This document shows, piece after piece, positions 4,680 through 55,683 of a DNA stretch of 64,000 bases. The DNA is from an archaeon. Lineage in GTDB: Archaea > Iainarchaeota > Iainarchaeia > Iainarchaeales > DTGL01. The notes under the pieces were generated by a model that saw nothing but the letters and a program-made list of their open reading frames with translations, ran no database searches and was not told where the DNA came from. How positions within the stretch are numbered: the stretch's first letter is position 1; each line of letters begins with the position of its first letter. The stretch covers positions 3,435 through 67,434 of the forward strand of contig JAPDKC010000027.1 in the NCBI GenBank assembly GCA_029258755.1. The letters run 5' to 3'. The position numbers and the translations under genes are program-made.

Positions 4680-4689
4680 AGTATCACCC

Positions 4690-5292: not shown

Positions 5293-5297
5293 AGTGT

Positions 5298-5729: not shown

Positions 5730-5739
5730 AAAATCTCAC

Positions 5740-15801: not shown

Positions 15802-17103
15802 CTACCCACTGGGTGATGCAACAATAAAAACAAACCCGCTTAAAGACACATACAGGAGGAAGCATAGTAAGAGCCCAGTTGTAGTTCCCACTGCAATCGG
15901 TGCAGCATCCTGGGGAATGTTTTTATACGCTTCCAATCCCACCTCAATAGCTTTCTGACTTACTTGATAAGGTACAATCCACAAAAATTTTTTAATTTCA
16001 TTTCCTATTCTGTATGTATCTCTATCACAAATTTTCTTACATATCCTACTGGCAGAGTCATATATAAATGTACATAGTTTGGCTCTAGTATCGTAAAAGA
16101 TCCCTATATGAAGTTCAACAATCCATTTTCTTTGTGCCCTGTCATATACTTTTATATTTACGTGTTGCGTAGGTGCTTTAAGTGCTGGTTCTCCACATGC
16201 TTTTGCAGCCCCAGGCAAGGAGTGAGAGTGAGCATACACTATTACTTCATAATTTCCGCTGACCTCTTTGTAAAGAATTTTTGTGGCTCCTGCTATAGAT
16301 GGGGGATAGTTATAATAGCTTCCTCTATAGGAGTAAGGAGTATATGAACGCCTATAGGGAGAACAAGAACCGTAGGATCTTCCAGCAGTTCCTTCTTCTA
16401 TGACTCTTACACGCACAGTATCATTTATGCCATATCCAAATAGAGGTCCAACACCAAGTACACATCTCAATCCTTCTTCGCAGTCACTATCGTTCTTGCA
16501 ACCTTTTCCACCCTCCCTTATTTTCCCGCCACTTTGCGTATTTCCATACAACCATGAGTATTTTCTGTACCAATAACTAGACTGGGGAGTTCTTCTATAT
16601 GGTGAGGAATAACTACGATATCCAGATTTACATTCTTTTTTTACAGGATCGCATCCATATGGGCAGTATTTCCTTCCTGAAGAAAAATAGTTTCCATATA
16701 CGGTACCAGAAGGCCACTCAAGACATCTGTCGCTATCGTAGTTTCCACAAGTTTCTAAATAATTTCCATTGCATCTTTTTTCTCCAAATGTACATTCATT
16801 ATAGCAGCCCCAAGAGGATCGCCAATAGCTGCTCGAGGCATTGGTGGTTTTTGAATAATTGCTGTAAGAGATTGTTCTAAAAGAATGGTAATAATTTTGA
16901 CTGAATCTTCTGCTTATGTTATATCTATGGAGCACTCTATATGGGTTTTCTGTCAGAGAAGTGTTTTTCCATCGAGAGTTTCTATAAGGATAATAATAGT
17001 GCCTAATTATATACGCATTAACAGGAACAATGGAAATGAGAAGGAATATCACAAGAATTAGGGAAAAGGCCCTTAATATCTTGCCCAATTTTGTATATCG
17101 CAT
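15802..17103 (-). CDS. Cys/Tyr/Ser/Arg-rich secreted protein with N-terminal signal anchor and C-terminal TM anchor
   Basis: 433 aa. N-terminal hydrophobic LILVIFLLISIVPVNA; >20 Cys; long Y/S/R/N low-complexity segments. C-terminal GTTTGLLLCFLLYVSLSGFVFIVASPSG hydrophobic tail. Confidence 0.6.
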   Translation of the reverse strand: MRYTKLGKILRAFSLILVIFLLISIVPVNAYIIRHYYYPYRNSRWKNTSLTENPYRVLHRYNISRRFSQNYYHSFRTISYSNYSKTTNASSSYWRSSWGCYNECTFGEKRCNGNYLETCGNYDSDRCLEWPSGTVYGNYFSSGRKYCPYGCDPVKKECKSGYRSYSSPYRRTPQSSYWYRKYSWLYGNTQSGGKIREGGKGCKNDSDCEEGLRCVLGVGPLFGYGINDTVRVRVIEEGTAGRSYGSCSPYRRSYTPYSYRGSYYNYPPSIAGATKILYKEVSGNYEVIVYAHSHSLPGAAKACGEPALKAPTQHVNIKVYDRAQRKWIVELHIGIFYDTRAKLCTFIYDSASRICKKICDRDTYRIGNEIKKFLWIVPYQVSQKAIEVGLEAYKNIPQDAAPIAVGTTTGLLLCFLLYVSLSGFVFIVASPSG

Positions 17104-17208
17104 CTTATAATTTTGTTTTTTGTTAAAAATCTTTTAAAATTTATTTTTGGTAAATTTAATTTAACATTTTCCATAAACTTTTTATTACATTGAGTTCTAA
17201 AGTTTCTT

Positions 17209-17886
17209 ATGCTAGACGAATCCAAGAAAAACGAAATAAAAAGATTTGTAAAAGAATGGGTAAAAAGAAAATTCAACGAACTTTCTAAATTGGATCCCTC
17301 TGAATTACATCCAAATCCATTTTTACTTAGAGCTTTAGGAATCAAAGAAAATACCAAGGAAGCCTTTGAATTCGGGATTCGGCAAAGGATTGAAAGGAGT
17401 CTCGTCACATCTTTCGGACAATCTGTATTTGAAACTATGTTAAAGATTTTAGGCTTTGAAAAATCTAAAATAGAGGATATTGATCTTATTTTTGAAAAAG
17501 AAGGTACTAAATATTTTATTCAGTTAAAAAGTGGTCCTGAAGGATTCACAAGACCTGCTCTTAGTAAAACTAAACAAACTTTTGAAAAAATTAAATCTAC
17601 ACACCCAGATTGTAAAACGGTAATAGCTTTTGGTTATGGTGTGGCACAACGCCTTTCTCCAATTTGGGGGAGAGAAGCTAAAGAAAGTGCAGACTTACTT
17701 CTTATAGGAAAGGATTTTTGGGATTTCTTTTTGGGAGAGGGTACTTATGAAGAATTATTAAAAATATTTGAAGAAGCAGGCAATGAAGTAGTAAAAGAAA
17801 CGGGTGAAAAAGAAGGGTTGTACATCACTTTAGTCAGAAAGTTGTTGGAAAAGGTAAAGAATTTATTACAATTAGAAGAAATCTAA
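17209..17886 (+). CDS. Putative PD-(D/E)xK-like nuclease, candidate Type II restriction endonuclease
   Basis: 225 aa. IEDIDLIFEKEGTKYFIQLKSG resembles a D...(E/Q)xK catalytic core. Convergent, 7 bp from the stop of the adjacent DNA methyltransferase gene. Confidence 0.35.
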   Translation: MLDESKKNEIKRFVKEWVKRKFNELSKLDPSELHPNPFLLRALGIKENTKEAFEFGIRQRIERSLVTSFGQSVFETMLKILGFEKSKIEDIDLIFEKEGTKYFIQLKSGPEGFTRPALSKTKQTFEKIKSTHPDCKTVIAFGYGVAQRLSPIWGREAKESADLLLIGKDFWDFFLGEGTYEELLKIFEEAGNEVVKETGEKEGLYITLVRKLLEKVKNLLQLEEI

Positions 17887-17893
17887 ATTTCAC

Positions 17894-20296
17894 CTATTGC
17901 GGTAAGATTACTTTAGTAATAAACCCATTCTTGGTTGTGTCTATGGTATTTTTCTTACGAAGATCCACTAATGAAATATTAAAATATTTACAGACAAGAG
18001 TGCTTAGTTTAGGGCTCACTGACCCAAATATCTTTTTCAAAACATGTAAAAATATTAAACACTTATTGTGATTTGACAAATATCGTGAAAGATAATTCAA
18101 TATATTCTCATTTTTAGCGATTTTTATATATGCTTCTATACCTAACACTATACCCTGGGGTAAAATTACTTGCTGAAATAATTTATTCTTCTCTTGACAA
18201 TTTTTATAGTTGAAAGAAGTTAATTTTGCAGATGACGCGGCCATAAGAGTCAATAACCTTTCCCACTCTTGAATTTCATCATGAGGGCATATTTTTGCAT
18301 TTTGTAATAGAAGATCTACTTTTTTACAAAAGTTTAAAACTTCTTCCTTATCAAATTCTTTTTCTTTTCCATTTTTGTTAGCTATAATTAGTATTGTTCT
18401 ATTAAGCTTTGGTTCACCAAACATACTTACACTTCTTGTGGGATGTTCAGATACTATTGGATAAAACCCTTCTACTTTAAAGCCTGAAATGAAAAGAGAG
18501 TAGAGTATAGATTCCCACGCATTCCATGATTTATGAGTAAACCAAAGAATAAGTTTTCCATTATCCTTTAAAGCATCGTATGAAGCCCTCAAAAATTCTA
18601 CAAAATTTTTCTTATATTTTTCTACTTCTTTTTGAAAGTTATTACCCTTTTTGACTATTAATTCATCTTTTCTCGGAACGAATGGTAGTTTTGGATCCCA
18701 CCCAATAAATTCCCAACTTTTCTTTCCGTCTATCTCTTCATTAAAGAAATGCTTTTCTAAAATATCTTTTAATGAGTTTCTAAGGAAAATCCAAAAGAAT
18801 TCGCTAAGATCGCTATATATATGTTGGTCAAAATAAGGTGGATCTACATTTATTATATCTAGAGTTTTCCTTCCTAAATAATTAATTCTTTTTGCGTCAA
18901 ATTGTAAAATCTTACACTCCACGTTTACGTTTTCTAATTGTTTTACTAGTTCATTCACCACTGGAAAAATACCACCACCAGTAGTAGAAGAGGAGTTTGG
19001 TTCAAAAACCCAATATAAATTCTTAAAGGGTACTACTGCTTCAGAAAAGGTTAGATTTATCTGTATTTTTCTAGAACGAGCATATTGTCCTATTGTATCT
19101 CTAATACTTTTGTTAGTAAAGTTCCAAGTAGTCAAAATGGTATTAAAATCTACCATTTTACTTAAACCAAAAGAAAGATAAAGAGAAACGGCAGCTCCTA
19201 ATTCTCCATATTCATTTATAAGTTGTAATGATTTTTTGCGAATATATATCGTCAGTAAAACTAGACTAAGAAGTTGCCTAGGATTAAAAATCTCGTACCA
19301 ATATTTGATGTCATGTTCAAGTAAAGATGAAAAAACTTTATTTTCTTTAAGAATTTCTTCTTTTGGGAGGAATTTATCAAATTCACTTGTGTGGTCGGAG
19401 AGAAAGTTTGCAGCATCTACAAGTTTTAAATAGTCTTCTTCTTTAGGTTTTCTATAATTTCTGTTTTTATCCTTTATAAATAGGATTGGATAAACTTTCT
19501 TTATTTCTTCTTTGCTAACTTTCATTCCTCCGATAATCTTAGAGATAATTGTTTTATGTTCGTGGACCCACTCTTTTATTAAGGTATTTTTATTTTTCTC
19601 AAATTTTCTTCTACAATTATCGCATCTCACACTAAGAATATTTTTCTTTTTGACAACGTTTTTTTCTAAATCTAATGTTATTTGATTTCCGCAAAACGGA
19701 CATTCTACAATTTTCGAAAAGATATATGCATCATCACTTTCATTATAGAATTTTCGAAGTTTGAAATTAGCAAACTCTAGGAGTTTTTCAATCTCATTTT
19801 TTAAGAGGTTTAAGAGCTTTCTTTTAAACTTTAATGGAAATTCTATAGTCCCTTTTAATATAAGGTAAGCTACCGGATTATAATCAAAAGCAATAGTATC
19901 GGCTCCCAGTAAAACGCTTTCCAATGGAATTGAACCACCACCTGCCATTGGATCACAAAGGGTTATTGGTATTTTAAGAGGTGTTGGTAAGGTATATGAG
20001 ATAAGTGGTGGATAATTTTCTTTCACTTTTGAATGAATTTTATTCATGTTAAATAATTCAGAAATTTTTTGAGAGTTACATGCTAGTAAAACTGAAAATC
20101 TTGCCATGGACCTAGGTCTTCGTGCTAACCAAGGATGTATACTTCTAATTTTAGGATCAAAAAAATGTTTTGGGAATGGTATATTTAGTTCTTTACATCT
20201 CGCTATATAGGATGAACGGGGTTTATAACTCATTTCTATTGCAGCATCTCTATTTATTTCACGAAAAATTTCCAAAAATTCGTTGTCAATTTTCAT
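17894..20296 (-). CDS. DNA methyltransferase, DUF1156-type (N6-adenine/N4-cytosine class)
   Basis: 800 aa. HPWLARRP DUF1156-type motif. DPMAGGGSIP as SAM-binding motif I. Zn ribbon CPFCG...CDNCRRKF. Catalytic DPPY motif (INVDPPYFDQ). Confidence 0.8.
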   Translation of the reverse strand: MKIDNEFLEIFREINRDAAIEMSYKPRSSYIARCKELNIPFPKHFFDPKIRSIHPWLARRPRSMARFSVLLACNSQKISELFNMNKIHSKVKENYPPLISYTLPTPLKIPITLCDPMAGGGSIPLESVLLGADTIAFDYNPVAYLILKGTIEFPLKFKRKLLNLLKNEIEKLLEFANFKLRKFYNESDDAYIFSKIVECPFCGNQITLDLEKNVVKKKNILSVRCDNCRRKFEKNKNTLIKEWVHEHKTIISKIIGGMKVSKEEIKKVYPILFIKDKNRNYRKPKEEDYLKLVDAANFLSDHTSEFDKFLPKEEILKENKVFSSLLEHDIKYWYEIFNPRQLLSLVLLTIYIRKKSLQLINEYGELGAAVSLYLSFGLSKMVDFNTILTTWNFTNKSIRDTIGQYARSRKIQINLTFSEAVVPFKNLYWVFEPNSSSTTGGGIFPVVNELVKQLENVNVECKILQFDAKRINYLGRKTLDIINVDPPYFDQHIYSDLSEFFWIFLRNSLKDILEKHFFNEEIDGKKSWEFIGWDPKLPFVPRKDELIVKKGNNFQKEVEKYKKNFVEFLRASYDALKDNGKLILWFTHKSWNAWESILYSLFISGFKVEGFYPIVSEHPTRSVSMFGEPKLNRTILIIANKNGKEKEFDKEEVLNFCKKVDLLLQNAKICPHDEIQEWERLLTLMAASSAKLTSFNYKNCQEKNKLFQQVILPQGIVLGIEAYIKIAKNENILNYLSRYLSNHNKCLIFLHVLKKIFGSVSPKLSTLVCKYFNISLVDLRKKNTIDTTKNGFITKVILPQ

Positions 20297-20553
20297 TTTC
20301 CTACACCTCTAGCTATTTCTTTAACAACTTCTTCAGGAGATTTCAACTTATAAAGTCTTTTTCTTGCGTCCTCCGGATCCAATCTCATTTCCAGCCAACC
20401 AACCTTTCTCATTTCGGATAAAATAACGCTAACCATTCTTTCGTCATCTGGCAATGTTTGAGTAGCTTGCTCATGATTGAACTCTTTATCCTTAAACTTA
20501 ACCCAAAGCAAAGAGTAGCGTTGCATAAGCCATTTAGGTAAAGGTTCTACCAT
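20293..20553 (-). CDS. Small hypothetical protein translationally coupled to the methyltransferase
   Basis: 86-aa ORF; 4-nt overlap with the MTase start; 6 nt after the stop of the DUF262-HNH gene. Confidence 0.5.
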   Translation of the reverse strand: MVEPLPKWLMQRYSLLWVKFKDKEFNHEQATQTLPDDERMVSVILSEMRKVGWLEMRLDPEDARKRLYKLKSPEEVVKEIARGVGK

Positions 20554-20559
20554 TTTCTA

Positions 20560-21828
20560 TCACCTTTTTCTATGAATTTTATTTAAATGACATTCTTTAC
20601 ATACTAGTAAAGCATTCTCTACTATTGTCTTCCCACCTTCTATGTATCTATCTTTATGGTGAAAATGTGTATCGGGACTATCAAATTTTAATTCTTTACT
20701 ACATAGAGCACATTTACCGTTATATTTTCTAAAAATTTCTATTTTTTGTTCTTCTGTAAAAAATCTGTTTTCATCTAATCTCATTGGATTATATTTTTCT
20801 AAAAATCTTTTAAGAATCAGGGTATACCTCAGTGTTATGCTTTTTACACTTGTTGTGCCTTTACTCACGTTAATATTAAATTCTACTAATTCTTTATCTC
20901 CAGACATTGGAGCTTGTTTGACATCTTGATAAAATGTTTGTATAAAATTTTTGAAATTTTCTTTCCGAGTTTTCATTACATAATTTTCAAGAAGATGTGC
21001 AGCTAATAAATAAACTGTAATTATCCATGCAGGTTTTCTTAATTCTGGTGCTGTAGTTTGAAAGGTTTCTGTAAGAAAATTTAGGACACGGTGGATTTTC
21101 TTGTAAACTTTGGATTCTTTATTTAAGTGTTTATTCTTTTCAAAAAATTCGTAAATATATCTTGGACTGATATCCTTAATACCTTCACTTTCGAGATATA
21201 ATAATTGAGCGACAATATAGTAGTGTTTATATCTTTTTTTCTTGATTGGGACCACCTCTTTAAAGAATCTATGAGATGCTAATTCTCTCATTAGAAGAAC
21301 TATCTCTCCAGGAAAAGCGTTTAGTATCTCTCCTGGAAGTAGTGGTTTTCCATGTTGAAGTCTTCTAAATAAAACCCTTATTTCCTCATCTGTGTAATCT
21401 TCCAAGACTATAATTGGTAAAGGATAATTGTCAAATCTATTTTGCCATTCTTCATGAAGTTGGTTATATGTGTAAGCACCTTTACCATTATTCTTTTCTC
21501 TGTTTTTTTGATCATAAATAATATCAGCAGAAAATTTTTCGTTTAATTTTAATTTATTTTCTTTGAACTTCCAAATTGTGTTTAATCTTTGTTGCCCATC
21601 TACAATAAAATAGGTTTCCCCTTTTTTGTGTAGAAATATTGGCGGTACTGCTAATCCTCTAAGGATAGTATCTATAAAGTATTGCTCATCACTTAAACTC
21701 CACGTTCCAGCTTCTCGTTGATAGGTAGGATCAATTTTATATCTTTCCTTATGAAGTATAAACGTACTAATTAGTCGTGGTTTTGGTTCTGGAGGCTCTT
21801 TCAATCTCATTTTATCACCTATGTCCAT
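20560..21828 (-). CDS. DUF262 (ParB-like) - HNH nuclease fusion, GmrSD/SspE-like modification-dependent (type IV-like) endonuclease
   Basis: 422 aa. N-terminal IDPTYQRE...DGQQRLNTI DUF262 signature. C-terminal CALCS...HFHHKDRYIEGGKTIVENALLVCKECHLNKIH His-Me (HNH) finger. Confidence 0.8.
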   Translation of the reverse strand: MDIGDKMRLKEPPEPKPRLISTFILHKERYKIDPTYQREAGTWSLSDEQYFIDTILRGLAVPPIFLHKKGETYFIVDGQQRLNTIWKFKENKLKLNEKFSADIIYDQKNREKNNGKGAYTYNQLHEEWQNRFDNYPLPIIVLEDYTDEEIRVLFRRLQHGKPLLPGEILNAFPGEIVLLMRELASHRFFKEVVPIKKKRYKHYYIVAQLLYLESEGIKDISPRYIYEFFEKNKHLNKESKVYKKIHRVLNFLTETFQTTAPELRKPAWIITVYLLAAHLLENYVMKTRKENFKNFIQTFYQDVKQAPMSGDKELVEFNINVSKGTTSVKSITLRYTLILKRFLEKYNPMRLDENRFFTEEQKIEIFRKYNGKCALCSKELKFDSPDTHFHHKDRYIEGGKTIVENALLVCKECHLNKIHRKR

Positions 21829-21950
21829 AACATAATTAATAGTTTAAGAATTTATAAATTTTTTGGATAACCTATATACTTGACTATCGAAATATTTTAA
21901 TATTAGTTATGCTAATAACATATTAGATATGTGATAAACATAAGATAAAT

Positions 21951-21985
21951 CCCAGAGGGTGTTGGGTTAAGGGTCACCCTCTGGG
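21951..21985. repeat. GC-rich perfect inverted repeat (11-bp stem, 13-nt loop)
   Basis: cccagagggtg-ttgggttaagggt-caccctctggg in the AT-rich divergent intergenic region between the DUF262-HNH and integrase genes. Confidence 0.6.
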
Positions 21986-22002
21986 AGTGGAAGTGCCAGG
22001 CT

Positions 22003-23337
22003 ATGACAACCCCCACAATGAAAGATAGGGAAAGGAGGAAATATAAAACTTTTGTAAGTGAAAAATTTAGCTTGAGAAAGCTTCAGGAGTATGAAGAAGT
22101 TAAAACTTGGTTGAGAACGGTAAGTGAAAGTTCTAGAAGATTGTATTTACATGCTTTAAGACATTTCTGCGAATTTTGTAATAAAGACCCAAAAGAGCTA
22201 ATTTTAATGAGGGATAAGGAGATAAGAAATCCTGATCCGAATTCGAAAAGCGGTGTTAGAAACTTAATTCTTGATTTTAGAGAGTATTTGGAAAAAGAAG
22301 GTTATGCTCCAAAGACAATTAACGCTTTAGATGGTGCAGTAAGAAATTTCTTTTCTGCTATCCTTGGAAAAGCTGGAATGATAAATGTTAAGAATTACAA
22401 GGATGCTTGTGTTACTAAAAAGAAAGATTTTGTTCCAACTTTAGAGGAACTAAAGAAAATGTTGGAACTCTGTAATCTGGAGGAGAAGTTTAGGATAATT
22501 TTCTTAGCTCAAACTGGAATGAGAATTTCAGATGCCTTGGAATTAAAGGTTGGTAATGTTCTGAGAGAATTGGAATTAGGCAAAGTTCCCTTAGCAATTT
22601 ACTATGTTCCTAAGAAAGACAGAGATGCAATTGGAGAAAAAATAACTTTCTTGGCTTCAGATGGAGTTGAGATTTTAAAGCAATATTTAGAATGGAGAAA
22701 AAAGAATGGTGAAAATATTACGCCAGAAAGTCCTTTGTTTGTTGGAAGAAGTAAAAAGTATAATGGTATTAAGGTTACCAAACTTACTAGGCAAATGGTA
22801 AATTTGACTTTGAAAGAAGCTGTTAAGAGAGCTAGATTGGGGAATGGTAACGGAAAATATGGAAGGATAAGAGTCCATTGCTTAAGAAAATTCTTTGTCA
22901 CTCAACTAACAAATCACGGAGTTGAAGATAAGGTGGTTAACTTCTTTATTGGACATAAAATTCCTGAATTTGATAGAGTTTATTGGTTTAGGAGGGTTGA
23001 AGAGTTAAGAGAAATTTATAGGCAAAGAGAAAAGTTTCTTAATCCAATTTCTGGAACTCAGCATGAGGATTTGAGAAAGATTGAAGATTTGATCAAGAAA
23101 GTAAAAGAAATAGATGAAAAGTTGAAATCTTTAAATGAAACTAAGATCAAAGAGATTGTGTTTAATGTGATTAAAGAGTATGGAATTATTTTTAACGGGA
23201 CTAATCATTCAACTTCAAATCAAAAATATGATGTAAAGATTGTTACAAGTGAAGAAGAAATTATTGAGTTGGCAAAGCAAGGTTATGATTGTCAGCAAAT
23301 AGGAGAGAATAAGTGGTTGATGAAAAAGCGAATTTAA
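22003..23337 (+). CDS. int: Tyrosine recombinase / phage-type integrase
   Basis: 444 aa. Catalytic region with RISDALELK (Arg I), HCLRKFF (His-x-x-Arg II) and RVYW (Tyr). N-terminal SAM-like core-binding domain. Confidence 0.85.
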   Translation: MTTPTMKDRERRKYKTFVSEKFSLRKLQEYEEVKTWLRTVSESSRRLYLHALRHFCEFCNKDPKELILMRDKEIRNPDPNSKSGVRNLILDFREYLEKEGYAPKTINALDGAVRNFFSAILGKAGMINVKNYKDACVTKKKDFVPTLEELKKMLELCNLEEKFRIIFLAQTGMRISDALELKVGNVLRELELGKVPLAIYYVPKKDRDAIGEKITFLASDGVEILKQYLEWRKKNGENITPESPLFVGRSKKYNGIKVTKLTRQMVNLTLKEAVKRARLGNGNGKYGRIRVHCLRKFFVTQLTNHGVEDKVVNFFIGHKIPEFDRVYWFRRVEELREIYRQREKFLNPISGTQHEDLRKIEDLIKKVKEIDEKLKSLNETKIKEIVFNVIKEYGIIFNGTNHSTSNQKYDVKIVTSEEEIIELAKQGYDCQQIGENKWLMKKRI

Positions 23338-23353
23338 TTAATTAACCTTAACT

Positions 23354-24109
23354 TTACTGTAAGGATGCTGAAACCTTTTTTATAATTTTTTCCACTCTTA
23401 TTATTCCGAGTTTTGTGAGTTTTATTCCATTTTTATTAATATGGATAAACTTTTTTCTTTCCAATCTTCGTAAAGTTGTGCTGAGAAGTTGTGGATACTT
23501 TGGCTTCACAGAGAATATGATCTCATCTTTCTTAACCCTTTTTGGATAGTTAATATATAAAAGTAACAGAAGTTCATCGGAAAATGGTAAATTCTCCTTT
23601 AAAATTAAGATACTTCCATCCTCGAATTTTTCAACGACTGGTAATTTTCTCTCTACAAACTTATCTAAAACTTCTTTCATTTTATGTTCGTTAATCTTTT
23701 CCATAAAAAGTAAGAGTTGTGAAAATATCCAATCGGAAGCTTCAATAACATATTTAGCATCTATAAAATTTGGATCAATCTCTTTAAAATGAGCCACTTT
23801 CTTTTTACTTCTTAATGTATAAATCGATTTTGCGACAATAGGCACTACTAGTGTCAATATCTCGTCTTTCGCACTTAGTTTTTGTAGATTAATCAAGGTA
23901 TTAAACATTTTATCAAACTTGGATTTTCTAAAATCTATATTCTGTACATTATAGTATATCAAAATAGATCTAAGAACTATTTCAACGAATATTCCACCAG
24001 AAATTATTGTTTTTTCAAAGTCGGATAAAATAAAAGAATTCTTAATTTGATTATATTCCTTTATTAGTTCATTTATAAGCGGTATTTCTTGGAGTTTCAT
24101 CATATTCAC
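23354..24109 (-). CDS. Hypothetical protein (integrase-associated ORFan)
   Basis: 251 aa ORF, no recognisable motif. Confidence 0.45.
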   Translation of the reverse strand: MNMMKLQEIPLINELIKEYNQIKNSFILSDFEKTIISGGIFVEIVLRSILIYYNVQNIDFRKSKFDKMFNTLINLQKLSAKDEILTLVVPIVAKSIYTLRSKKKVAHFKEIDPNFIDAKYVIEASDWIFSQLLLFMEKINEHKMKEVLDKFVERKLPVVEKFEDGSILILKENLPFSDELLLLLYINYPKRVKKDEIIFSVKPKYPQLLSTTLRRLERKKFIHINKNGIKLTKLGIIRVEKIIKKVSASLQ

Positions 24110-24672
24110 GTGGATTTAACTTTCTCGATTTGTTCTTTTAATAGCTTCTTCGCTTCGTCAATGCCAGGCGGTAAAATATCTACAAACAAATATTTACCTT
24201 CTTTCCAGATTTTGATGTATTTTTTATACTTGGATAAATCTCTTTTTAAGTGAGAAACGTCGACCCATTTCTTTATCTTTTTAGACAATTCTTTTAGTTT
24301 GATAGGAGTTTTTTTGTAAATAGTCTTAAGTGGCAATAAAAGTATTAATGAAGCCTTTAACTGTTTACCTCTTCCTTCTAACTCTAGGTAATTAATATCT
24401 ACATCATCTTCCTTAAAATTATAAACATATTGTAAATCCTCTGCAGGGAAACCTAGCAATTTTTCCATATTTTTCTTTGGCTTCTGCACAGTTTTTTCAG
24501 TGTAATGGACTTTTTCTTCAATAATTAAACGAGAATACAATTTTTCAAAGTTTTCTTTAACAAATTTTTCATTTCCTTTTACTTCGATCTCGATTTCACC
24601 AATTTTTATTTTTATAGAGCATATAGAGTTTTCATTATTTTCTGTCATCTTTCTCACCATATTTACTTTCAA
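24106..24672 (-). CDS. Hypothetical protein (integrase-associated ORFan)
   Basis: 188 aa ORF, 4-nt overlap with the downstream gene. Confidence 0.45.
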   Translation of the reverse strand: MKVNMVRKMTENNENSICSIKIKIGEIEIEVKGNEKFVKENFEKLYSRLIIEEKVHYTEKTVQKPKKNMEKLLGFPAEDLQYVYNFKEDDVDINYLELEGRGKQLKASLILLLPLKTIYKKTPIKLKELSKKIKKWVDVSHLKRDLSKYKKYIKIWKEGKYLFVDILPPGIDEAKKLLKEQIEKVKST

Positions 24673-25069
24673 GTTCTTTCAAAATTTTTTCAATTTTTGT
24701 AGGGATTACACGATAAATTCCTTTTTTCTCACGTATCGAGAGTTTTTCATCTCTAATTTCCTTTAGCCTAGCCGAAACTTGCATTTTATCCACCATAAAG
24801 AAGTTTGAAATTTCTCGTGCCGAAAGAAAAGGTTTTATAGATTCATCTAGTTTACTAGCAATAAATCTTGCTACTAGTGCTAATTTAATCTTGTCTTTTA
24901 AAGTAAATTTGTCTCCAAGCTCCGTAAGATCAACTTCTCCTGTTTTTGTAATTTTACAATACCTCATAAGGCGTTTTACATACTGTGCTATTTTTTTCTC
25001 ATCAAAAGCTTTTTCATCAATTACCCATTTATTTTTTAGCTCTTCAAGATCGTCCATTTTCATACTCAC
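24635..25069 (-). CDS. Hypothetical protein, possible winged-helix DNA-binding
   Basis: 144 aa. C-terminal ISAREISNFFMVDKMQVSARLKEIRDEKLSIREKKGIYRV resembles a wHTH. Confidence 0.4.
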   Translation of the reverse strand: MSMKMDDLEELKNKWVIDEKAFDEKKIAQYVKRLMRYCKITKTGEVDLTELGDKFTLKDKIKLALVARFIASKLDESIKPFLSAREISNFFMVDKMQVSARLKEIRDEKLSIREKKGIYRVIPTKIEKILKELESKYGEKDDRK

Positions 25070-25216: not shown

Positions 25217-27804
<2,588 letters not shown>

Positions 27805-30512: not shown

Positions 30513-30953
30513 TTATTTAATCTTTTTGCTCAACTTCTTTGCTAGCTTTAGCGTTGGCAGCTCAACCTGAGAATAGCTATGCTTATAACCGGATTTTTTC
30601 AAAGCATGCCTAAGAGCATACACGGCTGCAAGCTCTTCTAAGCACTTAACCTCTTTTTTATCCAAAGCAGACCTCCTTTTTATAGAATCTTTCAAAGCCC
30701 TCTTAACGCTAGGTTCTTGCAATACATACAATGCATTTTCTCTCGTTAATGCATCATTGACAGCGTTCTCTATAACACTAAAATCGATCTCCTCTGCTAA
30801 GTATCGCTCGATAGCTTGCTCTATGCTCGCGGAAAGCGAAATAAGAAATTCAGCTATATCTTTAGCTTCAACCCCTTTTTCTACCTTGAGCTTTTTAATT
30901 GAAACCCAATCGCCAAGCTTTGCAATGAACTGTATGCCTTCAAAGTTATCCAT
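30513..30953 (-). CDS. Hypothetical protein
   Basis: 146 aa ORF, probably co-transcribed with the upstream Cys-rich gene. Confidence 0.45.
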   Translation of the reverse strand: MDNFEGIQFIAKLGDWVSIKKLKVEKGVEAKDIAEFLISLSASIEQAIERYLAEEIDFSVIENAVNDALTRENALYVLQEPSVKRALKDSIKRRSALDKKEVKCLEELAAVYALRHALKKSGYKHSYSQVELPTLKLAKKLSKKIK

Positions 30954-34093: not shown

Positions 34094-34166
34094 TGCCCCG
34101 GCCGGGATTCGAACCCGGGTCACCAGCTTGAGAGGCTGGGATGCTTAACCCCTACACCACCGGGGC
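34094..34166 (-). tRNA. tRNA-Glu (CTC)
   Basis: Manual fold: acceptor GCCCCGG/CCGGGGC. Anticodon stem CCAGC/GCTGG with loop CTCTCAA. T arm CCGGG-TTCGAAT-CCCGG. Confidence 0.8.
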
Positions 34167-34713: not shown

Positions 34714-34786
34714 TGCCAGGGGCGGGATTCGAACCCGCGACCTTTCGATTATGAGTCGAACGCTCTAACCGCTGAGCTACCCTGGC
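34714..34786 (-). tRNA. tRNA-Met (CAT), elongator or tRNA-Ile2
   Basis: Manual fold: acceptor GCCAGGG/CCCTGGC. D arm GCTC-AGCGGTTA-GAGC. Anticodon stem TTCGA/TCGAA with loop CTCATAA. Confidence 0.85.
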
Positions 34787-34794
34787 TAGTTTTT

Positions 34795-35502
34795 CTATTT
34801 AAATTTGCTCAAAAAAGGTTTTAATGCTTTTATTTTTTCCTTCACTTTTTTCCATACTGTTTGTGCTCTTACAAAATCATATCTTTCCTTATCAAAGCGA
34901 TAACCAGGCATAGGAATAAACTTTATGGATATTACTCCTTCTTTTTCTAAATTTTTTAAGGCTTCCCAAAGTTTTCTCTTCATCTGAACAATTTCACGTT
35001 TCCTACCTAGTCTGGGCCATCTCTGCAACATTAACTTTTCAAGCCCACAACCCAAATTAGCATACCGTTCTATTAGTTTTCTATTTTTTTCTATAGTTTT
35101 ACGATTTTTAGTTGCATCCTTACGAACTTTAATTATTGTTCGTCCTAATTCATGTCCCTGAAAGACTCTACTTATTACCCATATACGTACATCCGAATTA
35201 ATAGCATCTCTATATGCAAGACGTAAATCATTGGGAGTAGGAAGTGCCTGCATAGGTGTGCCAGGAGGGGCAGGGTGCGTATGGATAAACATTCTTTCTC
35301 CTGGAAGAGGAGGGGCACGAAAAACATGTTGCGGAGTCCCTCTAACAGTAGCATACACAAGCTCATCTCCAGTTTTCTTATACCAGCATGCCTCGAACTC
35401 AAGCTCAAGCCTTTCCTTAAGATGTTTTTGATAAAACTCTTCTATAGCTTTCTTGGGCTTGCCCCAACGCTTCTCAATAAACCTTTTTACAACTCTAGGC
35501 AT
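34795..35502 (-). CDS. HTHP-motif family protein, paralog 1 of tandem array
   Basis: 235 aa. Shares with three neighbours RWGKPKK, GERMFIHTHP...ALPTPNDL, VISRV...ELGRTIIKV, KFIPMPGYRFD. Confidence 0.6.
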   Translation of the reverse strand: MPRVVKRFIEKRWGKPKKAIEEFYQKHLKERLELEFEACWYKKTGDELVYATVRGTPQHVFRAPPLPGERMFIHTHPAPPGTPMQALPTPNDLRLAYRDAINSDVRIWVISRVFQGHELGRTIIKVRKDATKNRKTIEKNRKLIERYANLGCGLEKLMLQRWPRLGRKREIVQMKRKLWEALKNLEKEGVISIKFIPMPGYRFDKERYDFVRAQTVWKKVKEKIKALKPFLSKFK

Positions 35503-36138
35503 TTTGGCTCACTTTTAGCAAATTTTTAAAAAGAAAAGTAAAAAACTCCCTAATACTTCTTTTTCTAGGTATGAAATCTCCTAATTTTTTGTTGTAGTAA
35601 TAACCCTCGGCAGGAAAAAATTTTACTGAGATGTATCCGTGTTTGCACCATCGCTCAAAAACCTCATAACATGCTTTTGGCCAGGCCTTTCCGCTTATCA
35701 GTCCTAATTCTTTAGCATATTCCTTAACCGATAATTCCCTCCATAGCCAGAGAAGTTTTTCCCTATCTTTTACTTTTACTCTTATTATGGTTCTGCCTAT
35801 TTCTTTCCCTTCATCGCTTATACGACTTATTGCCTGTGTTTTTATTCCGTACCAATAGTACAATTCTATAATCGTTTTGAGATCACGTATGCTCGGTATG
35901 CTTGCAAGGGATTCTCCGGGCCTTCCAACATGGGTATGTATAGCCATTTTTTCACCTTTTTGGGAAGCCCACTTTCTCTTATTTTCTCAGATGTTCTAAC
36001 AGCTTTAGCTTTTCTTAATCTTCCTCTTGGAGCTTTGTAAAATAACTCTTCTCGGATTTCACCAAATCTGCAGAGATCTTCTTTAGCATACCTTTCTATA
36101 GTTTTTTTCGGTCTGCCCCAAATAACCCCTTTAACCAT
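35495..36138 (-). pseudogene. HTHP-motif family paralog 2, interrupted by a frameshift in an A-run (35866-36138 N-terminal part, 35495-35947 C-terminal part)
   Basis: Two overlapping ORFs in different frames together cover a full-length paralog. The frame switch maps to the aaaaaa run just upstream of MAIHTHV. Confidence 0.55.
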
Positions 36139-36178
36139 AGAGCAAACACTTATTGCAGTTCATTATAATTTTTGCTAT

Positions 36179-36658
36179 TTACTTCTTGGTGTTTTTATGT
36201 CTTCTAACAGGTTCAAAATCCGCTATCTTTTCGTTGAATCTATAGCCAGGCATTGGAACAAACCTAACAGAAACACCAAGCGATTTTAGCTCTCTTAAAA
36301 GCTTTAATCTTTCCTCTAGATTTGCGCCTTTATATTTTTTTAACCAAGTTCCGTGAGCTTTTGTTGGCCCTGTCTCAAAAAACTTCCTATTTAATTTTAA
36401 AACCGTTCTGCCAATTTCCCTTCCTTTTTCATCAATACGGCTTATCACTTGTGTGGTTATTCCTTCCATCGAGCGTCTGAACAAATCGTCCATATCAGCC
36501 AAACCTGGAAGAGCTCCAAACGCCTTTTGGGATCTTTTAGGGTGAGTGTGAATTAGCATTCTTTCTCCTTCCCTGGGCGCCCTGCTTGCGCTCCAATCAC
36601 GGGCTCTTATATCAGCGGCTTTATTTAAATCCTTTCGTGGCTCTTTATACCAATTCAT
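36179..36658 (-). CDS. HTHP-motif family protein, paralog 3 (N-terminal homology continues upstream to ~36730 without a canonical start)
   Basis: 159 aa from the annotated ATG. GERMLIHTHP...ALPGLADMDDL, VISRIDEKGREIGRTVLKL, RFVPMPGYRFNE. Confidence 0.55.
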   Translation of the reverse strand: MNWYKEPRKDLNKAADIRARDWSASRAPREGERMLIHTHPKRSQKAFGALPGLADMDDLFRRSMEGITTQVISRIDEKGREIGRTVLKLNRKFFETGPTKAHGTWLKKYKGANLEERLKLLRELKSLGVSVRFVPMPGYRFNEKIADFEPVRRHKNTKK

Positions 36659-36750
36659 TTCCAGTGTTTCGATATTTCTTGTCTTTTCTATCTGTTTGTG
36701 CGGTTTGCCCCAGCGCCCTCGTTTGCGCTTTCTAAAAAACTTAATCTACA

Positions 36751-37377
36751 TCACCTCCGGCTTTTTACAGAACCCTCTCTTACACTTACAAAATCATCTA
36801 TCCTTTCATCGAATCTATAGCCTTGCATTGGAATAAATTTTACAGAGAGTAATTTGTCGCTTCTCCATTTTCTAAAAAGTTTATGTGCTTCTATCTCAAG
36901 CCTCTTTTCGCGTTCTTCGATGTCCATATCCTTTAATGATCTTTCAAGGCGTTCCATGTATCCTATGAGCTGGTTTACTTTTTTCTCATCTTTTATTCTG
37001 AGCTTAAGAAATGTTCTGCCTATTTCTTCTCCTTTCTCGTTCACCCTGCTTATAACCCATGTGTTTATTCCATACTCCTTGTACATCGTTAGCAGCCCTC
37101 TTAAATCATTGAAGCTTGGCAATGCGCAGTTAGCTGTAGCTGCTCTCTCAGGATGCGTATGCAGAAATAACCGTTCGCCTTTTTTTGCAGGTTTTGCCAT
37201 TAGAGATGTTCTACTTCTAAATTCTGTACCATACCTTAGATTTCCCCGAGGTTTTTTATAGAATCCACTCTCGTGAATCCAACCTAAATGCCTTAAATCT
37301 CGTTTTGCGAAACCTTCAACAACCCTTTTTGGGATTCCCCAGCGTGTCTTTCGCGAAGCACCTTTGTTCTTAGGCAT
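36751..37377 (-). CDS. HTHP-motif family protein, paralog 4
   Basis: 208 aa. RWGIPKR, GERLFLHTHP...ALPSFNDL, VISRVNEKGEEIGRTFLKL, KFIPMQGYRFDE. Confidence 0.6.
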   Translation of the reverse strand: MPKNKGASRKTRWGIPKRVVEGFAKRDLRHLGWIHESGFYKKPRGNLRYGTEFRSRTSLMAKPAKKGERLFLHTHPERAATANCALPSFNDLRGLLTMYKEYGINTWVISRVNEKGEEIGRTFLKLRIKDEKKVNQLIGYMERLERSLKDMDIEEREKRLEIEAHKLFRKWRSDKLLSVKFIPMQGYRFDERIDDFVSVREGSVKSRR

Positions 37378-37389
37378 AAGAAAAGCCCC

Positions 37390-38085
37390 CTATTCTACCT
37401 CTTCTTCTAATTTCATGATTCGGCTTTTTACTTCAATTTTATCGTTATGTAGAAGAATTCTATCGGCAGAACCCAAAAAAAGCCCTGTTTCTATAACTCC
37501 GGGAATCTTTTTGGTATCGTATTCTAAATCCTCAAGCGAATATATTTGGTCGAATTTTACGTCTATAATATAGTTACCGCTCTCCGTAGTGAAGCGTTCG
37601 CCATTTTCTTTGAGTCTAAAGCTTGCTTCTCCAAATTCATCCAATTGAAGCAAAGTTCTTTCAGCCCCAAAGCTATCAACCTCAAAAGGGATTGTTCCGT
37701 GCAATCTTTTCACGTAGTTTTCCTTCTCGGTAACAACTATAAGTTCTACAGCACTCTGCGCTATCATCTTATCCCTTATTAGCGATGTGGAATCGCGCTT
37801 TATGAAATTGAATTGCGTATCAACCATAGATGCGAACTCGAATGCAATATCAATTTCCTTATCGTTTATTGATGCTATTGGAAGCTTTAGAGATGTGCAA
37901 AGGGCTGCAAGCTTAAGGGATGTTGGAACAATCCTTATATTAAATCCCTTTTCTGCAACCTTGAGGGCTATCTTTTTAAGAAATGCCTCTGAATGGATGC
38001 TTGTTCCCAAAGCAATAGTAACATCATCGCGCAAATATCTGTCTATAAGCGCCTCTATTATTTCTTCTTCAAGCATTTGGCTCAC
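37390..38085 (-). CDS. rpiA: Ribose-5-phosphate isomerase A-like protein (divergent)
   Basis: 231 aa. ALGTSIHS (phosphate loop-like), IDIAFEFASMVD (aligns to DGADE region), FIKRD, GVIETGLFLG typical RpiA C-terminus. Confidence 0.6.
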   Translation of the reverse strand: MSQMLEEEIIEALIDRYLRDDVTIALGTSIHSEAFLKKIALKVAEKGFNIRIVPTSLKLAALCTSLKLPIASINDKEIDIAFEFASMVDTQFNFIKRDSTSLIRDKMIAQSAVELIVVTEKENYVKRLHGTIPFEVDSFGAERTLLQLDEFGEASFRLKENGERFTTESGNYIIDVKFDQIYSLEDLEYDTKKIPGVIETGLFLGSADRILLHNDKIEVKSRIMKLEEEVE

Positions 38086-46917: not shown

Positions 46918-46977
46918 GCGTAAAAAATAGGTGTTTAGGGTTTAAAATCTTAACATTTTACCTAAAGCTGTTTGCTA

Positions 46978-47061
46978 TGCACGGGGGCGGATTCGAACCG
47001 CCGAAGGCACTAAGCCACGGCGCCCTGAACGCCGCCCCTTTGACCGCTCGGGCACCCGTGC
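46978..47061 (-). tRNA. tRNA-Leu (CAG)
   Basis: Manual fold: acceptor GCACGGG/CCCGTGC. Anticodon stem CGGCG/CGCCG with loop TTCAGGG. Long variable arm TGGCTTAGTGCCTTC. T arm GGCGG-TTCGAAT-CCGCC. Confidence 0.85.
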
Positions 47062-47109
47062 ATCTAAAAATTAATAAAACCATAAAAAATTATTTTAAAT
47101 TGCCAGAAC

Positions 47110-54343: not shown

Positions 54344-54763
54344 CTATTTAAACAGCCCTAAAAACTTGTTTATAAAGTTTTTAGTGCTTTTTCCAAGTTT
54401 TGCCCTAAATTCTTTTGAGGTCTCTCCGGAGCTCCAAGCACCATATTCATCGAATACGGCTTCACCTGTTTTTCTCCCAACTTCTTTAAGTGTTTCAGAT
54501 AAGACCCCTTCAGGAAAGCTTGTCTGAGCTTCGGAAACCTTTTTTAGCTCACTTTTAGCAACTTTTGCTCCTGCCCTTGCCATTCTTTTAGTTGTCGAAA
54601 ATGTCTTGGTTATTAGTTTTGCAAGTAAATAAACAAATGCTGAAAATAGGAAAATGAAAGAAAAAAAGAGTTGTCTTGTTAGAAACGCAAAAATTGCTAA
54701 GAATAAAAGGAAAATGAAGGTAGCAAATGTTGCGCTAAAGCCCTTCTCCGCCAAGCAAACCAC
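54344..54763 (-). CDS. Small membrane protein with prepilin-like N-terminus (AEKG followed by a ~22-residue hydrophobic stretch)
   Basis: 139 aa. N-terminus MVCLAEKG|FSATFATFIFLLFLAIFAFL. Soluble C-terminal domain. Confidence 0.45.
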   Translation of the reverse strand: MVCLAEKGFSATFATFIFLLFLAIFAFLTRQLFFSFIFLFSAFVYLLAKLITKTFSTTKRMARAGAKVAKSELKKVSEAQTSFPEGVLSETLKEVGRKTGEAVFDEYGAWSSGETSKEFRAKLGKSTKNFINKFLGLFK

Positions 54764-55055
54764 CTAAGCCACCCATGTCAGGTCCGTAGTATTCTGGCTG
54801 TGTTTTTTCTTTACTTCCAAGTAAAAGAGCGAGTATAACAAGCCCCATCGCCAGGAGGGGCCAAACATCTTTCATTAAATCTCTAGTAAGATACATCCCT
54901 ACGAGCGCTAGAATCATAACAAGCGTTGTTGAAAGAGACCTTGTGGTTAGCATTACAATAACCACAGTGCCAAGCACTAACCAGTTCTGATCAAATTGAA
55001 CAAACAGCATCATAAGGATTAAAGCCATTGTGAGCGTTAACGTATCCATGACCAA
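54735..55055 (-). CDS. Small membrane protein
   Basis: 106 aa. 3 TM helices. Gly-rich C-terminal tail. Confidence 0.4.
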   Translation of the reverse strand: MVMDTLTLTMALILMMLFVQFDQNWLVLGTVVIVMLTTRSLSTTLVMILALVGMYLTRDLMKDVWPLLAMGLVILALLLGSKEKTQPEYYGPDMGGLGGLLGGEGL

Positions 55056-55058
55056 TCA

Positions 55059-55322
55059 CTAATCTTTTAAGCGTTCAGGTTTTTTTGCTCCTATGGGTAT
55101 TTTTTCAAACATACCGCTAAAGAATGTTGCTATTAGGAAGAGTATAACCGGAACCCATATAAGAAAAGGATATCTAAAAAATGTTAGATAGACAACAATT
55201 ACTGCAAACAGAGCAGCAATTATAGCAGAACCCAGCTGTTTTTTTGCCCAAGCGTAAAGCCATACTAAGTATATAAGTCCTAAAACAGCACCTATATCCT
55301 CTAATACACCCAAGTGGCACAC
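55059..55322 (-). CDS. Small membrane protein
   Basis: 87 aa, 2-3 TM helices. Confidence 0.4.
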   Translation of the reverse strand: MCHLGVLEDIGAVLGLIYLVWLYAWAKKQLGSAIIAALFAVIVVYLTFFRYPFLIWVPVILFLIATFFSGMFEKIPIGAKKPERLKD

Positions 55323-55362
55323 CCATTTAATTTATTGTTGTACAGGAAATAAAACCCTTTCC

Positions 55363-55683
55363 TTAATGGCCAACACGCGTGCTTATGCCCCATATTATCA
55401 CTGAAAAGAAATTAAACGCTAAGAGTACGTAGAAAAATACGTAAAGAGAAGCGGTTATATAAGCGTGCTTTATTACAAGCAGATATATCAAGGCGGCACT
55501 TATTATTACAGTTAAAGCATTTGAGCCGATATGTGCTCTAACAGTAGCAAAAATCATAATGGCCAGAAACACCCTCATCAAAAGATCGGCCGCAGGAAAT
55601 AGCTTCATTACTAAAGGAGGCAGAACCGCAAGAATAGCAAACGCCAATAGAATAAAAACTACAAAAAACCCTCTGGAATTCAT
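55363..55683 (-). CDS. Small membrane protein with class III (prepilin-like) signal-peptide-like N-terminus
   Basis: 106 aa. MNSRG|FFVVFILLAFAILAVL fits the archaeal PibD substrate pattern (basic residue, Gly, then hydrophobic helix). Confidence 0.45.
   Translation of the reverse strand: MNSRGFFVVFILLAFAILAVLPPLVMKLFPAADLLMRVFLAIMIFATVRAHIGSNALTVIISAALIYLLVIKHAYITASLYVFFYVLLAFNFFSVIIWGISTRVGH

Follow-up and report, generated by a model that had tools for sequence, protein, structure and literature searches.

Positions 34795-37377 of a 64,000-nucleotide stretch of DNA (hereafter the window) from an archaeon of the small, symbiotic type (Iainarchaeota, DPANN) carry four paralogous, co-oriented ORFs on the minus strand, flanked by rpiA and tRNA-Met, and the question raised by this locus is what these genes encode and why four copies would be kept. 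The answer proposed here is that the four genes very probably represent an undescribed, apparently archaeal family of zinc-dependent hydrolases belonging to the JAB/MPN+ (JAMM) superfamily, for which a mechanism can be suggested by analogy.

The gene array and its reading frames

Pairwise identity among the paralogues, termed A to D, is 34-41% with 33 invariant columns, each copy is matched by the family HMM at E values from 1e-32 to 1e-52, and repeats with a period of 608-655 nt are detectable in the array DNA. This four-fold paralogy is far beyond chance. A sequence-only reading of the same DNA had described four co-oriented paralogues with conserved motif blocks next to tRNA-Met, tRNA-Glu and rpiA; this description was borne out in each respect, including all of the quoted blocks (RWGxPKK; GERxxxHTHP, followed after 12 residues by P[S/T/G]xxD; VISR..G.EIGRT; [KR]F[IV]PMxGYRF). 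The features of the locus are as follows.

37390..38085, minus strand: rpiA (ribose-5-phosphate isomerase A; Pfam PF06026, E 1.8e-36), 12 nt upstream of gene A
37377..36751, minus strand: gene A, 208 aa, intact, at the site of the single copy in related Iainarchaeia
36743..36761, minus strand: A-B junction, GGAGGTGA (Shine-Dalgarno-like), TGATG, TAG and ATT by direct sequence reading
36745..36179, minus strand: gene B, 188 codons from ATT (36745-36743), 159 aa from the first ATG at 36658
36138..35495, minus strand: gene C, 214 aa after restoring one A; a 1-nt frameshift divides it into 36138..35866 and 35947..35495
35957..35961, minus strand: A5 homopolymer, the frameshift site in gene C, A6 in the conspecific assembly L003
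35502..34795, minus strand: gene D, 235 aa, intact (HMM E 5.9e-46)
34830..36770, minus strand: B-C-D block, 91-99% identical to the Iainarchaeum MAG contig L001 in most 150-nt windows (81% in one)
34714..34786, minus strand: tRNA-Met (CAT), 8 nt downstream of gene D
34094-34166: tRNA-Glu, a neighbour of the array

The rpiA gene is also the neighbour in single-copy relatives, indicating synteny, and in L001 and L005, too, a tRNA-Met lies after the family gene. Elsewhere, DUF2666 recurs near family loci at variable positions. The array is tightly packed, the last 8 nt of gene C being shared with the start of gene D, and is probably co-transcribed as a putative operon; a TATA-like AAATTATAA lies ~25 nt upstream of the gene C ATG.

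The conserved N-terminus of gene B has no ATG, GTG or TTG start upstream of it, the sequence there reading TGATG-TAG-ATT. The TGATG at the junction is the gene A stop overlapping an in-frame ATG, and the TAG stop is codon 2 after this coupled ATG, an arrangement that is identical in the conspecific assemblies L002 and L003 and nearly identical in the related species represented by L001. The family-invariant Glu, E29 in gene B, is encoded by GAA at 36661-36659, just 5' of the first ATG, such that calling the gene from that ATG leaves it 29 codons short and without its catalytic Glu, which is flagged here as an annotation error. The codons upstream of the ATG, including the Glu codon, are conserved with only 7 differences, and in an AlphaFold2 model of gene B from the ATT (pLDDT 92.3) residues 11-30 are placed at pLDDT 87-98. 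Fusion of A and B through frameshifting or readthrough was rejected, as a TAG in the B frame and a TAA in the third frame stand right after the gene A stop, and recoding of TAG was rejected since this is the stop codon of genes C and D.

Both L003 and L001 have an intact gene C, of 198 aa in L003, where the gene D deletion gives it a different C-terminus, and of 209 aa in L001; in the window gene C retains the E, HTH and S..D elements. Gene B is intact in the window as well as in L002 and L003, but frameshifted in L001. Each of the two frameshifts alters a homopolymer by a single base, and the resulting split genes in the two MAGs are likewise flagged as annotation errors.

Predicted active site and relation to known JAMM proteins

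The predicted JAMM residues, in gene A numbering, are E36, H73, H75, S88 and D91. Both His, the Asp and the Glu are kept in all four copies, the Glu of gene B lying upstream of its first ATG, and the motif Ser is replaced by Gly in the window copy of gene B (Ser in the L001 copy) and by Thr in gene D, which also has a longer helical insert. Given the Gly and the start of gene B and the frameshift in gene C, not all of the four genes need be active in this genome. Among 134 representatives of the family, conservation is 134/134 at H75, 133/134 at H73, 132/134 at both E36 and D91, and 116/134 at S88, with Thr in another four. The catalytic Glu had previously been assigned to the GER block, where it is conserved in 32 of the 134, and this assignment was wrong, the JAMM Glu being E36.

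When the family profile was aligned by hhalign with an AfJAMM-family profile (all members PF14464), the probability was 91.3% (E 9.4e-7), and in an extended alignment E36/H73/H75/S88/D91 were in register with E22/H67/H69/S77/D80 of AfJAMM. The MPN alpha/beta fold that characterises the JAB/MPN+ superfamily was also found. These results support the earlier suggestion of a JAMM/MPN+-like site, and the profile-profile and structure searches that had been proposed as checks on it, both now run, agree with the JAMM reading. In each of the four window proteins, 12 residues separate HxH from Ser, rather than the 7 of the canonical H-x-H-x7-S-x2-D; among the 134 members the spacer length varies between 5 and 23 (mode 12), and 7 residues are found in only six. 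Judged from the alignments, the textbook pattern is departed from but the predicted residue set is not, and with a spacer of 12 rather than 7 the metal-site geometry is not guaranteed.

The family could not be placed by the sequence-only reading, and this still holds, since no model in Pfam, NCBIfam, PADLOC or PHROGs reached threshold in scans of the window proteins and the 134 members. The four window proteins have no match to Pfam Prok-JAB (PF14464), JAB (PF01398) or RadC (PF04002) even at E<=10, 2/134 family members match Prok-JAB (best E 0.0036), and member P0021, in which the spacer is the canonical 7 residues, matches six PADLOC JAB models. Foldseek against the PDB returned nothing significant, and searches of PDB chains by sequence and by profile produced matches no better than chance (archease at E 0.29, and others). 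Foldseek matches in BFVD to uncharacterised phage 'minor capsid' proteins had low TM scores (0.37-0.45) and were set aside as not interpretable.

An hmmsearch against 1.84 billion representatives (50%-identity clusters) recovered 218 matches at E<=1e-3 and 42 at E<=1e-10; word-indexed protein searches had little sensitivity for the family, with 3 and 6 matches. A locus search from a narrower alignment recovered 4 genome loci, 9 metagenome loci and 0 viral loci, and 0/88 pattern matches in IMG/VR were confirmed as family members. All contigs with readable context look archaeal, and the taxonomically labelled members are Iainarchaeota. Single-copy syntenic homologues are found in L013 and L005/L015/L016, and tandem arrays occur independently in other lineages (four copies in L007, three in L021 and at least two in L017). 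Across about 14 distinct loci neither a Ubl, E1 or E2 gene nor a consistently adjacent partner of any other kind was seen, and no description of the family was found in the literature on JAMM/JAB/MPN proteins in DPANN/Diapherotrites.

The stand-alone archaeal JAMM proteases, which include AfJAMM (AF2198, PDB 1OI0/1R5X) and Pyrococcus furiosus JAMM1 (5LD9) under Pfam Prok-JAB PF14464, and among which the Haloferax HvJAMM1 desampylase type belongs, share with the present family the same five catalytic residues, their order and the secondary-structure elements (hhalign 91%), as well as being archaeal and single-domain with no fused partner. Unlike them, the family has no Prok-JAB match at threshold, 12 instead of 7 residues between HxH and Ser, an extra ~80-residue C-terminal module (RFVPMPGYRF motif), a basic N-terminal tail and tandem amplification, and no linked SAMP/ThiS/MoaD or E1 gene was seen. 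The complete JAMM motif is likewise shared with eukaryotic MPN+ deubiquitinases (BRCC36-Abraxas/KIAA0157, AMSH/Sst2, Rpn11-Rpn8, CSN5-CSN6), and the encoding of several paralogous MPN proteins together recalls MPN+/MPN- pairs, but identity is only 5-12%, there are no helical-bundle or lid-type partners, and the metal ligands are present in all paralogues; the window organism is not known to have a ubiquitin system. With bacterial conflict JABs (CBASS Cap3 9ILD, BilC 8TYY, BubCD 9EA5) the family shares variable, exchangeable genomic behaviour, and one member weakly matches PADLOC Cap3-type JAB models at the motif, whereas no CD-NTase, E1/E2 or Ubl gene is adjacent and the context is chromosomal and housekeeping. 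The RadC-like JAB proteins (PF04002; 2QLC), whose motif is HNHPSG, differ in motif context and phyletic range, and no Pfam RadC match was obtained.

No Ubl (beta-grasp), E1-like (ThiF/MoeB/UbaA) or E2 Pfam family was detected among the ~45 of 68 called window ORFs that were scanned, nor were Ubl, E1 or E2 genes present in precomputed annotations around the homologues in L001, L008, L012, L013, L014 and L015. With no such gene at these loci, an isopeptide substrate would be suggested purely by analogy.

Strain variation and alternative roles

Relative to L001, the rpiA and gene A flanks of the highly similar B-D block are 62-81% identical, and the DNA beyond tRNA-Met is ~51% identical in a sliding-window comparison. 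Values of dS are 0.13-0.5 for B-D and about 2.4 for gene A and rpiA, and from these sequence comparisons we infer that the B-D block was recently exchanged between lineages. No att-like tRNA-Met duplications or direct repeats bounding B-D, which would point to site-specific integration, were found, the only repeats being those of paralogy. Among conspecific assemblies, L002 is without gene C and L003 without gene D, gene A is identical to its L003 copy, and gene B is a hotspot of allelic difference, at 34-37 sites with pN/pS of 0.23-0.24. All four genes are under purifying selection, with dN/dS relative to L001 of 0.09-0.21 (0.15 for gene D). The earlier proposal of a rapidly evolving accessory function fits B-D, for which there are presence/absence variants, allele replacement and a block also present in another species, but not gene A, whose divergence follows that of rpiA and whose site is occupied by a single copy in related genomes. 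The older state of this site would have been one copy between rpiA and tRNA-Met, and this lineage has three more (B-D), in a block that would recombine, pass between lineages, and gain and lose copies among strains.

A possible but unlikely explanation for the multiple copies is a hetero-oligomer in which active MPN subunits are combined with inactive ones, as in Rpn11-Rpn8 or BRCC36-Abraxas; gene B and perhaps others would be the non-catalytic partners. Gene B read from its first ATG lacks the catalytic Glu and has Gly for the motif Ser, the closest structural matches as a rule work as MPN+/MPN- pairs, and the tight packing and overlap of the genes fit co-expression. However, both His and the Asp are kept in all four copies, the Ser is present in L001 gene B, and the segment of gene B upstream of the ATG is conserved and confidently modelled within the fold. 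Further, strains lacking gene C or D, together with mostly single-copy relatives, indicate that no fixed hetero-complex is required.

A role in conflict or symbiosis instead of housekeeping, in which a DPANN symbiont would use the proteins as diversifying JAMM peptidase effectors or immunity-like modules and the tandem copies as a variable repertoire, maybe acting on proteins of hosts or rivals, also seems improbable. It is favoured by the presence/absence variants and allele replacement between near-identical assemblies, by a B-D block 91-99% identical to a species with 51-81% identical flanks, and by the repeated origin of arrays. The domain also occupies residues 1694-1946, close to the C-terminus, of P0135, a 2005-aa protein with an N-terminus that by eye is signal-peptide-like, and occurs in a related 606-aa fragment. 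However, the window proteins themselves have no signal peptide, no family member was found in viral contigs, no partner gene of toxin or immunity type was seen, and the PADLOC and PHROGs scans gave no meaningful match to the window proteins, the best being a weak one of gene D to PDC-M13C (E 0.024). Gene A and the single-copy homologues have a conserved, syntenic chromosomal position and are strongly constrained by purifying selection, and dN/dS is well below 1 in all copies. A more specific and somewhat more doubtful form is a DPANN-specific JAMM peptidase repertoire directed against hosts or competitors, for example removing SAMP/Urm1-type or other modifications from host proteins, in which delivery would take two alternative forms, as stand-alone copies or as C-terminal domains of giant secreted proteins, and the B-D cassette, in tandem and subject to recombination and horizontal exchange, would be an arms-race signature.

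Action of JAB-fold enzymes on RNA or the translation machinery, with basic N- and C-terminal tails binding nucleic acid, is very unlikely. The termini are rich in Lys/Arg, and neighbours across lineages include tRNA genes, Nop5/fibrillarin/NMD3, archease and an aIF1A-like ORF, but these neighbours vary between lineages and such proximity is expected by chance in small DPANN genomes dense in translation genes. No RNA-binding domain was matched, the conserved residues are those of a peptidase-type JAMM site, and the N-terminal helix aligns with core helix alpha-1 of AfJAMM instead of forming a separate domain. The RNA-associated role raised from the basic N-termini gained no specific support. 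That the locus is an ORFan expansion or a functionless, decaying pseudogene cluster, as the frameshifts in window gene C and L001 gene B and the stop at codon 2 after the coupled ATG of gene B might suggest, is extremely improbable and contradicted by the 218 related clusters elsewhere, the dN/dS of 0.09-0.21, the near-invariant catalytic residues, and the single-base, homopolymer nature of frameshifts in genes that are intact in other assemblies (gene C in L003 and L001, gene B in the window, L002 and L003).

Proposed mechanism and significance

The A-D proteins are, by analogy with characterised JAMM enzymes, most likely active Zn-dependent (iso)peptidases with diversified specificity. If the analogy with AfJAMM, Rpn11 and AMSH holds, H73, H75 and D91 would hold Zn2+, E36 would activate the zinc-bound water, S88 would help to stabilise the tetrahedral intermediate, and a peptide or isopeptide bond would be cleaved. 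The JAMM core spans residues ~9-127 of gene A and is followed by the family-specific C-terminal module (residues 128-208), which is made up of a helical hairpin and three strands and contains the [RK]F[VI]PMxGY[RK]F motif. The paralogues diverge most in this module and in the HxH-to-SxxD loop, both of which therefore probably govern substrate choice or the binding of partners.

Within ubiquitin-like signalling, JAMM/MPN+ enzymes form the metalloprotease branch and include the removers of ubiquitin-like tags, and their archaeal relatives bear on the origin of that signalling. The present family is well conserved across 218 clusters with an intact predicted active site and a distinctive C-terminal module, yet it is without a profile in Pfam, NCBIfam, PADLOC or PHROGs and without a visible Ubl partner gene at the loci scanned. 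The family can be tested directly, given its defined HMM and confident model. DPANN genomes are tiny, and the retention in such a genome of four copies, reshuffled between strains and species, suggests that their function matters to the lifestyle of these archaea.

The array and its chromosomal setting

On the minus strand at 34795-37377, four paralogous genes (A, B, C and D), all in the same orientation, lie in the following order of transcription:

38085..37390 (-), rpiA (Pfam PF06026, E 1.8e-36)
37377..36751 (-), gene A, 208 aa, after a 12-nt gap from rpiA
36745..36179 (-), gene B, with a 40-nt gap before gene C
36138..35495 (-), gene C, split by a frameshift in the window assembly
35502..34795 (-), gene D, 235 aa, sharing 8 nt with gene C
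34786..34714 (-), tRNA-Met, after an 8-nt gap from gene D
between tRNA-Met and tRNA-Glu, an ORF of 105 aa that has hydrophobic stretches and probably encodes a membrane protein
beyond the 105-aa ORF, tRNA-Glu

The four-paralogue array described in the sequence-only reading was confirmed, with pairwise identities of 34-41%, 33 invariant columns and family HMM E-values of 1e-32 to 1e-52 for each gene; every motif block named there was found, and the conserved blocks are detectable as DNA repeats with a period of 608-655 nt. Because the gaps are short and stop and start codons overlap, co-expression of genes A-D from the rpiA promoter is suggested; a TATA-like box, possibly an internal one, can also be read upstream of gene C.

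The window is a stretch of ordinary archaeal chromosome, with genes for ribosomal proteins, an RNA polymerase subunit, HisRS and Cdc48, among others. The Cdc48/VAT-type double AAA+ ATPase (25217-27370, minus strand) lies ~8 kb from the array, with no evidence of linkage; eukaryotic Cdc48 cooperates with MPN-domain cofactors (Npl4). A tRNA-Leu (CAG) at 46977-47062 (minus strand) was called by ARAGORN and is absent from the Rfam calls at the gathering threshold, while the other six tRNAs of the window were called by both. A giant ORF of 2324 aa at 56123-63097 (minus strand), in which Ig-like, CarboxypepD_reg and macroglobulin-type repeats occur, probably encodes a surface protein, and adjoining it at 54344-56069 (minus strand) are five small ORFs (87-139 aa) for which a Pfam scan gave no match. 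A low-GC island at 16000-25000 (0.30-0.34 versus about 0.40) has the appearance of an integrated element or a defence island, and contains:

17209-17886 (+), type II restriction endonuclease, EcoO109I/TdeIII-like
17894-20296 (-), 800-aa protein with weak zinc-ribbon matches only
20560-21828 (-), GmrSD_N+HNH protein
22003-23337 (+), tyrosine integrase

Family identity and putative zinc site

No model in Pfam, NCBIfam, PADLOC or PHROGs covers the proteins of genes A-D, and PDB sequence searches with them returned noise only. An exhaustive hmmsearch with a six-sequence profile over 1.84 billion cluster representatives recovered 218 proteins at E<=1e-3 and 42 at E<=1e-10, most of them 160-280 aa long. 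In an alignment of 134 members (gene A numbering), E36 (132/134), H73 (133/134), H75 (134/134) and D91 (132/134) are nearly invariant, as are P87, G120 (134/134) and G186, and position 88 is Ser in 116 of the 134 and Thr in four more. E36, H73, H75, S88 and D91 make up the full JAMM residue set. The proposal that the Glu of the 'GER' block is the JAMM glutamate was not borne out, since that residue is found in 32/134 members versus 132/134 for E36. The HxH-to-Ser spacer is 12 residues in genes A-D, which is also the mode of a family range of 5-23, and the canonical 7-residue spacer occurs in six of the aligned members.

The JAMM reading passed the profile-profile test against homologues of AfJAMM, the stand-alone archaeal protease, whose sequence was checked as 100% identical to 1OI0/1R5X and whose homologues, all annotated PF14464, were collected and aligned: hhalign gave a probability of 91.3% (E 9.4e-7) over the HxH...SxxD region. 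A relaxed alignment, which is the same hit with the same score and hence not an independent test, pairs AfJAMM E22/H67/H69/S77/D80 with E36/H73/H75/S88/D91 and places the core at residues 9-127. Weak matches to Pfam Prok-JAB came from two family members, and one member, with a spacer of 7 residues, matched six PADLOC JAB models. Structure prediction agrees with the JAMM reading. In the AlphaFold2 model of gene A (134-sequence alignment; pLDDT 92.1, pTM 0.87), strand 70-76 carries HTH at its end and helix 89-102 begins around S88..D91, the arrangement known from JAMM enzymes; a Foldseek search of the PDB gave no significant match. Residues 128-208, a helical hairpin and three strands carrying [RK]F[VI]PMxGY[RK]F, extend the JAMM core in a family-specific way.

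The best supported reading, drawn from the homology to JAMM proteases and from how nearly invariant just these five residues are, is that the family would comprise active JAMM-type zinc hydrolases. Zn2+ would be held by H73, H75 and D91, with E36 acting as general base and S88 assisting. The paralogues differ most in the enlarged loop by the metal site and in the C-terminal module, which, if the insert regions of MPN+ deubiquitinases are a guide, would govern substrate or partner choice. An isopeptidase role may be proposed by analogy only.

Reading frames of genes B and C

Gene B has no canonical start, and the first ATG (36658) comes only after the conserved N-terminus of the gene (IKFFRKRKRGRWGKPHKQIEKTRNIETLE); E29, aligned to the family-invariant glutamate, falls within this N-terminal stretch. 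Gene callers place the start at that ATG (M30), giving 160-161 aa and losing the catalytic Glu. One alternative considered is a hetero-oligomer of MPN+ and MPN- subunits in which gene B would supply the inactive member. The A-B junction at 36743-36761 (minus strand) reads GGAGGTGA-TG-TAG-ATT, in which an ATG overlaps the gene A TGA (TGATG). TAG comes directly after this ATG, and next are ATT, 8 nt past a GGAGG core, and the conserved gene B frame. The junction is identical in the conspecific assemblies L002 and L003, and nearly so in L001, a contig from another Iainarchaeum species. Translated from ATT, gene B is modelled by AlphaFold2 with pLDDT 92.3 (87-98 for residues 11-30), and in the profile alignment AfJAMM helix alpha-1 is matched by the corresponding N-terminal helix of gene A. 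Relative to L001, the 29 upstream codons carry four synonymous and three non-synonymous changes (dN/dS 0.17, suggestive but not significant). Gene B would most plausibly initiate at ATT or another non-canonical start; at the junction, either a GGAGG Shine-Dalgarno-like element precedes an ATT start, or codon 2 carries a nonsense mutation that is followed by re-initiation.

Gene C is divided into 36138..35866 and 35947..35495 by a one-base frameshift at an A5 run (35957-35961); L003 has A6 here and an undivided gene, and gene C is also intact in L001. In L001 itself, T7 versus T6 at ~5569-5575 splits an otherwise intact gene B. These single-base homopolymer differences may have arisen through errors in sequencing or assembly, or may act as phase-variation-like switches.

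Distribution and evolution of the array

A Candidatus Iainarchaeum MAG (Iainarchaeota, DPANN) is the closest relative, and all homologue-bearing contigs with interpretable context look archaeal; no family match was confirmed in IMG/VR. Contig L006 (DAOWAC010000034.1; 35% GC), labelled as a Chloroflexota bacterium, carries aIF1A-like and MCM-like ORFs by eye and is probably archaeal DNA that was misbinned. Neighbours vary by lineage, being rpiA and tRNA-Met in Iainarchaeia, Nop5/fibrillarin on contig L008, a GTPase and archease on L014, and, by eye, ORFs resembling thymidine kinase and ribulose-phosphate epimerase on L022. An RNA- or translation-linked role was also considered. No Ubl, E1 or E2 genes were seen near any family locus. 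In two distant DPANN lineages a DUF2666 gene repeatedly follows the JAMM-family gene at a distance of 0-4 kb (window 30513-30953; contigs L007 3920-4351, L013 11417-11854, L015 11610-12047 and L022 3061-3495, the last assigned by similarity to the L007 protein and not by Pfam scan) and is paired with DUF116 in Iainarchaeia, which may reflect residual synteny or a loose functional link. The domain is also found at residues 1694-1946 of a 2005-aa protein with an N-terminus resembling a signal peptide, and internally in a 606-aa fragment; a Pfam search found no domains in either.

In more distant Iainarchaeia (L013; L005/L015/L016) a single copy lies directly after rpiA, followed in L005 by tRNA-Met, so that a lone gene at this position is probably the older condition. 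Distances among the four paralogues are about the same as their distances from the single-copy proteins, and D-like (protein P0005) and B-like (P0008) relatives occur elsewhere, so the duplications are not recent. Independent tandem arrays occur on L007 (four copies), L021 (three) and L017 (at least two). Adjoining the L007 array at 4584-6591 (minus strand) are three further tandem paralogues of ~190 aa, the one scanned being GNAT acetyltransferase-like, and tandem amplification may be common in that genome.

Compared with L001, rpiA and gene A show 62-81% DNA identity and saturated dS (about 2.4-2.5), whereas from ~36770 to ~34830, spanning genes B, C and D (L001 5200-7160), identity is 91-99% in most 150-nt windows, with one at 81%, and dS is 0.13-0.5; beyond tRNA-Met it drops to about 51%, a sharp mosaic boundary. 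This jump against diverged flanks indicates that the two lineages have recently exchanged the B-D block. Homologous recombination is the presumed route, and a search for att-like repeats or an integrase close to the block found none. Among near-identical assemblies of the same population, with flanks differing at 0-8 sites per 300 nt (mostly 0-4), L002 is without gene C (L002 5169-5226) and L003 without gene D (L003 5857-5880); gene B alleles differ from the window at 34-37 sites, and gene A of the window equals that of L003. Such array variability, together with the giant-protein fusions, would fit a conflict or symbiosis effector repertoire; the core synteny speaks against it, as do the missing secretion signal and the absence of defence or phage links. 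Purifying selection acts on all copies (dN/dS 0.09-0.21; gene B alleles pN/pS 0.24). A decaying ORFan cluster is contradicted by the conservation data.

Genes A-D represent a previously unprofiled family inside a very well-known superfamily, and its unusual points are the spacer, the added C-terminal module, the absence of a visible Ubl partner and the marked strain-level dynamics.
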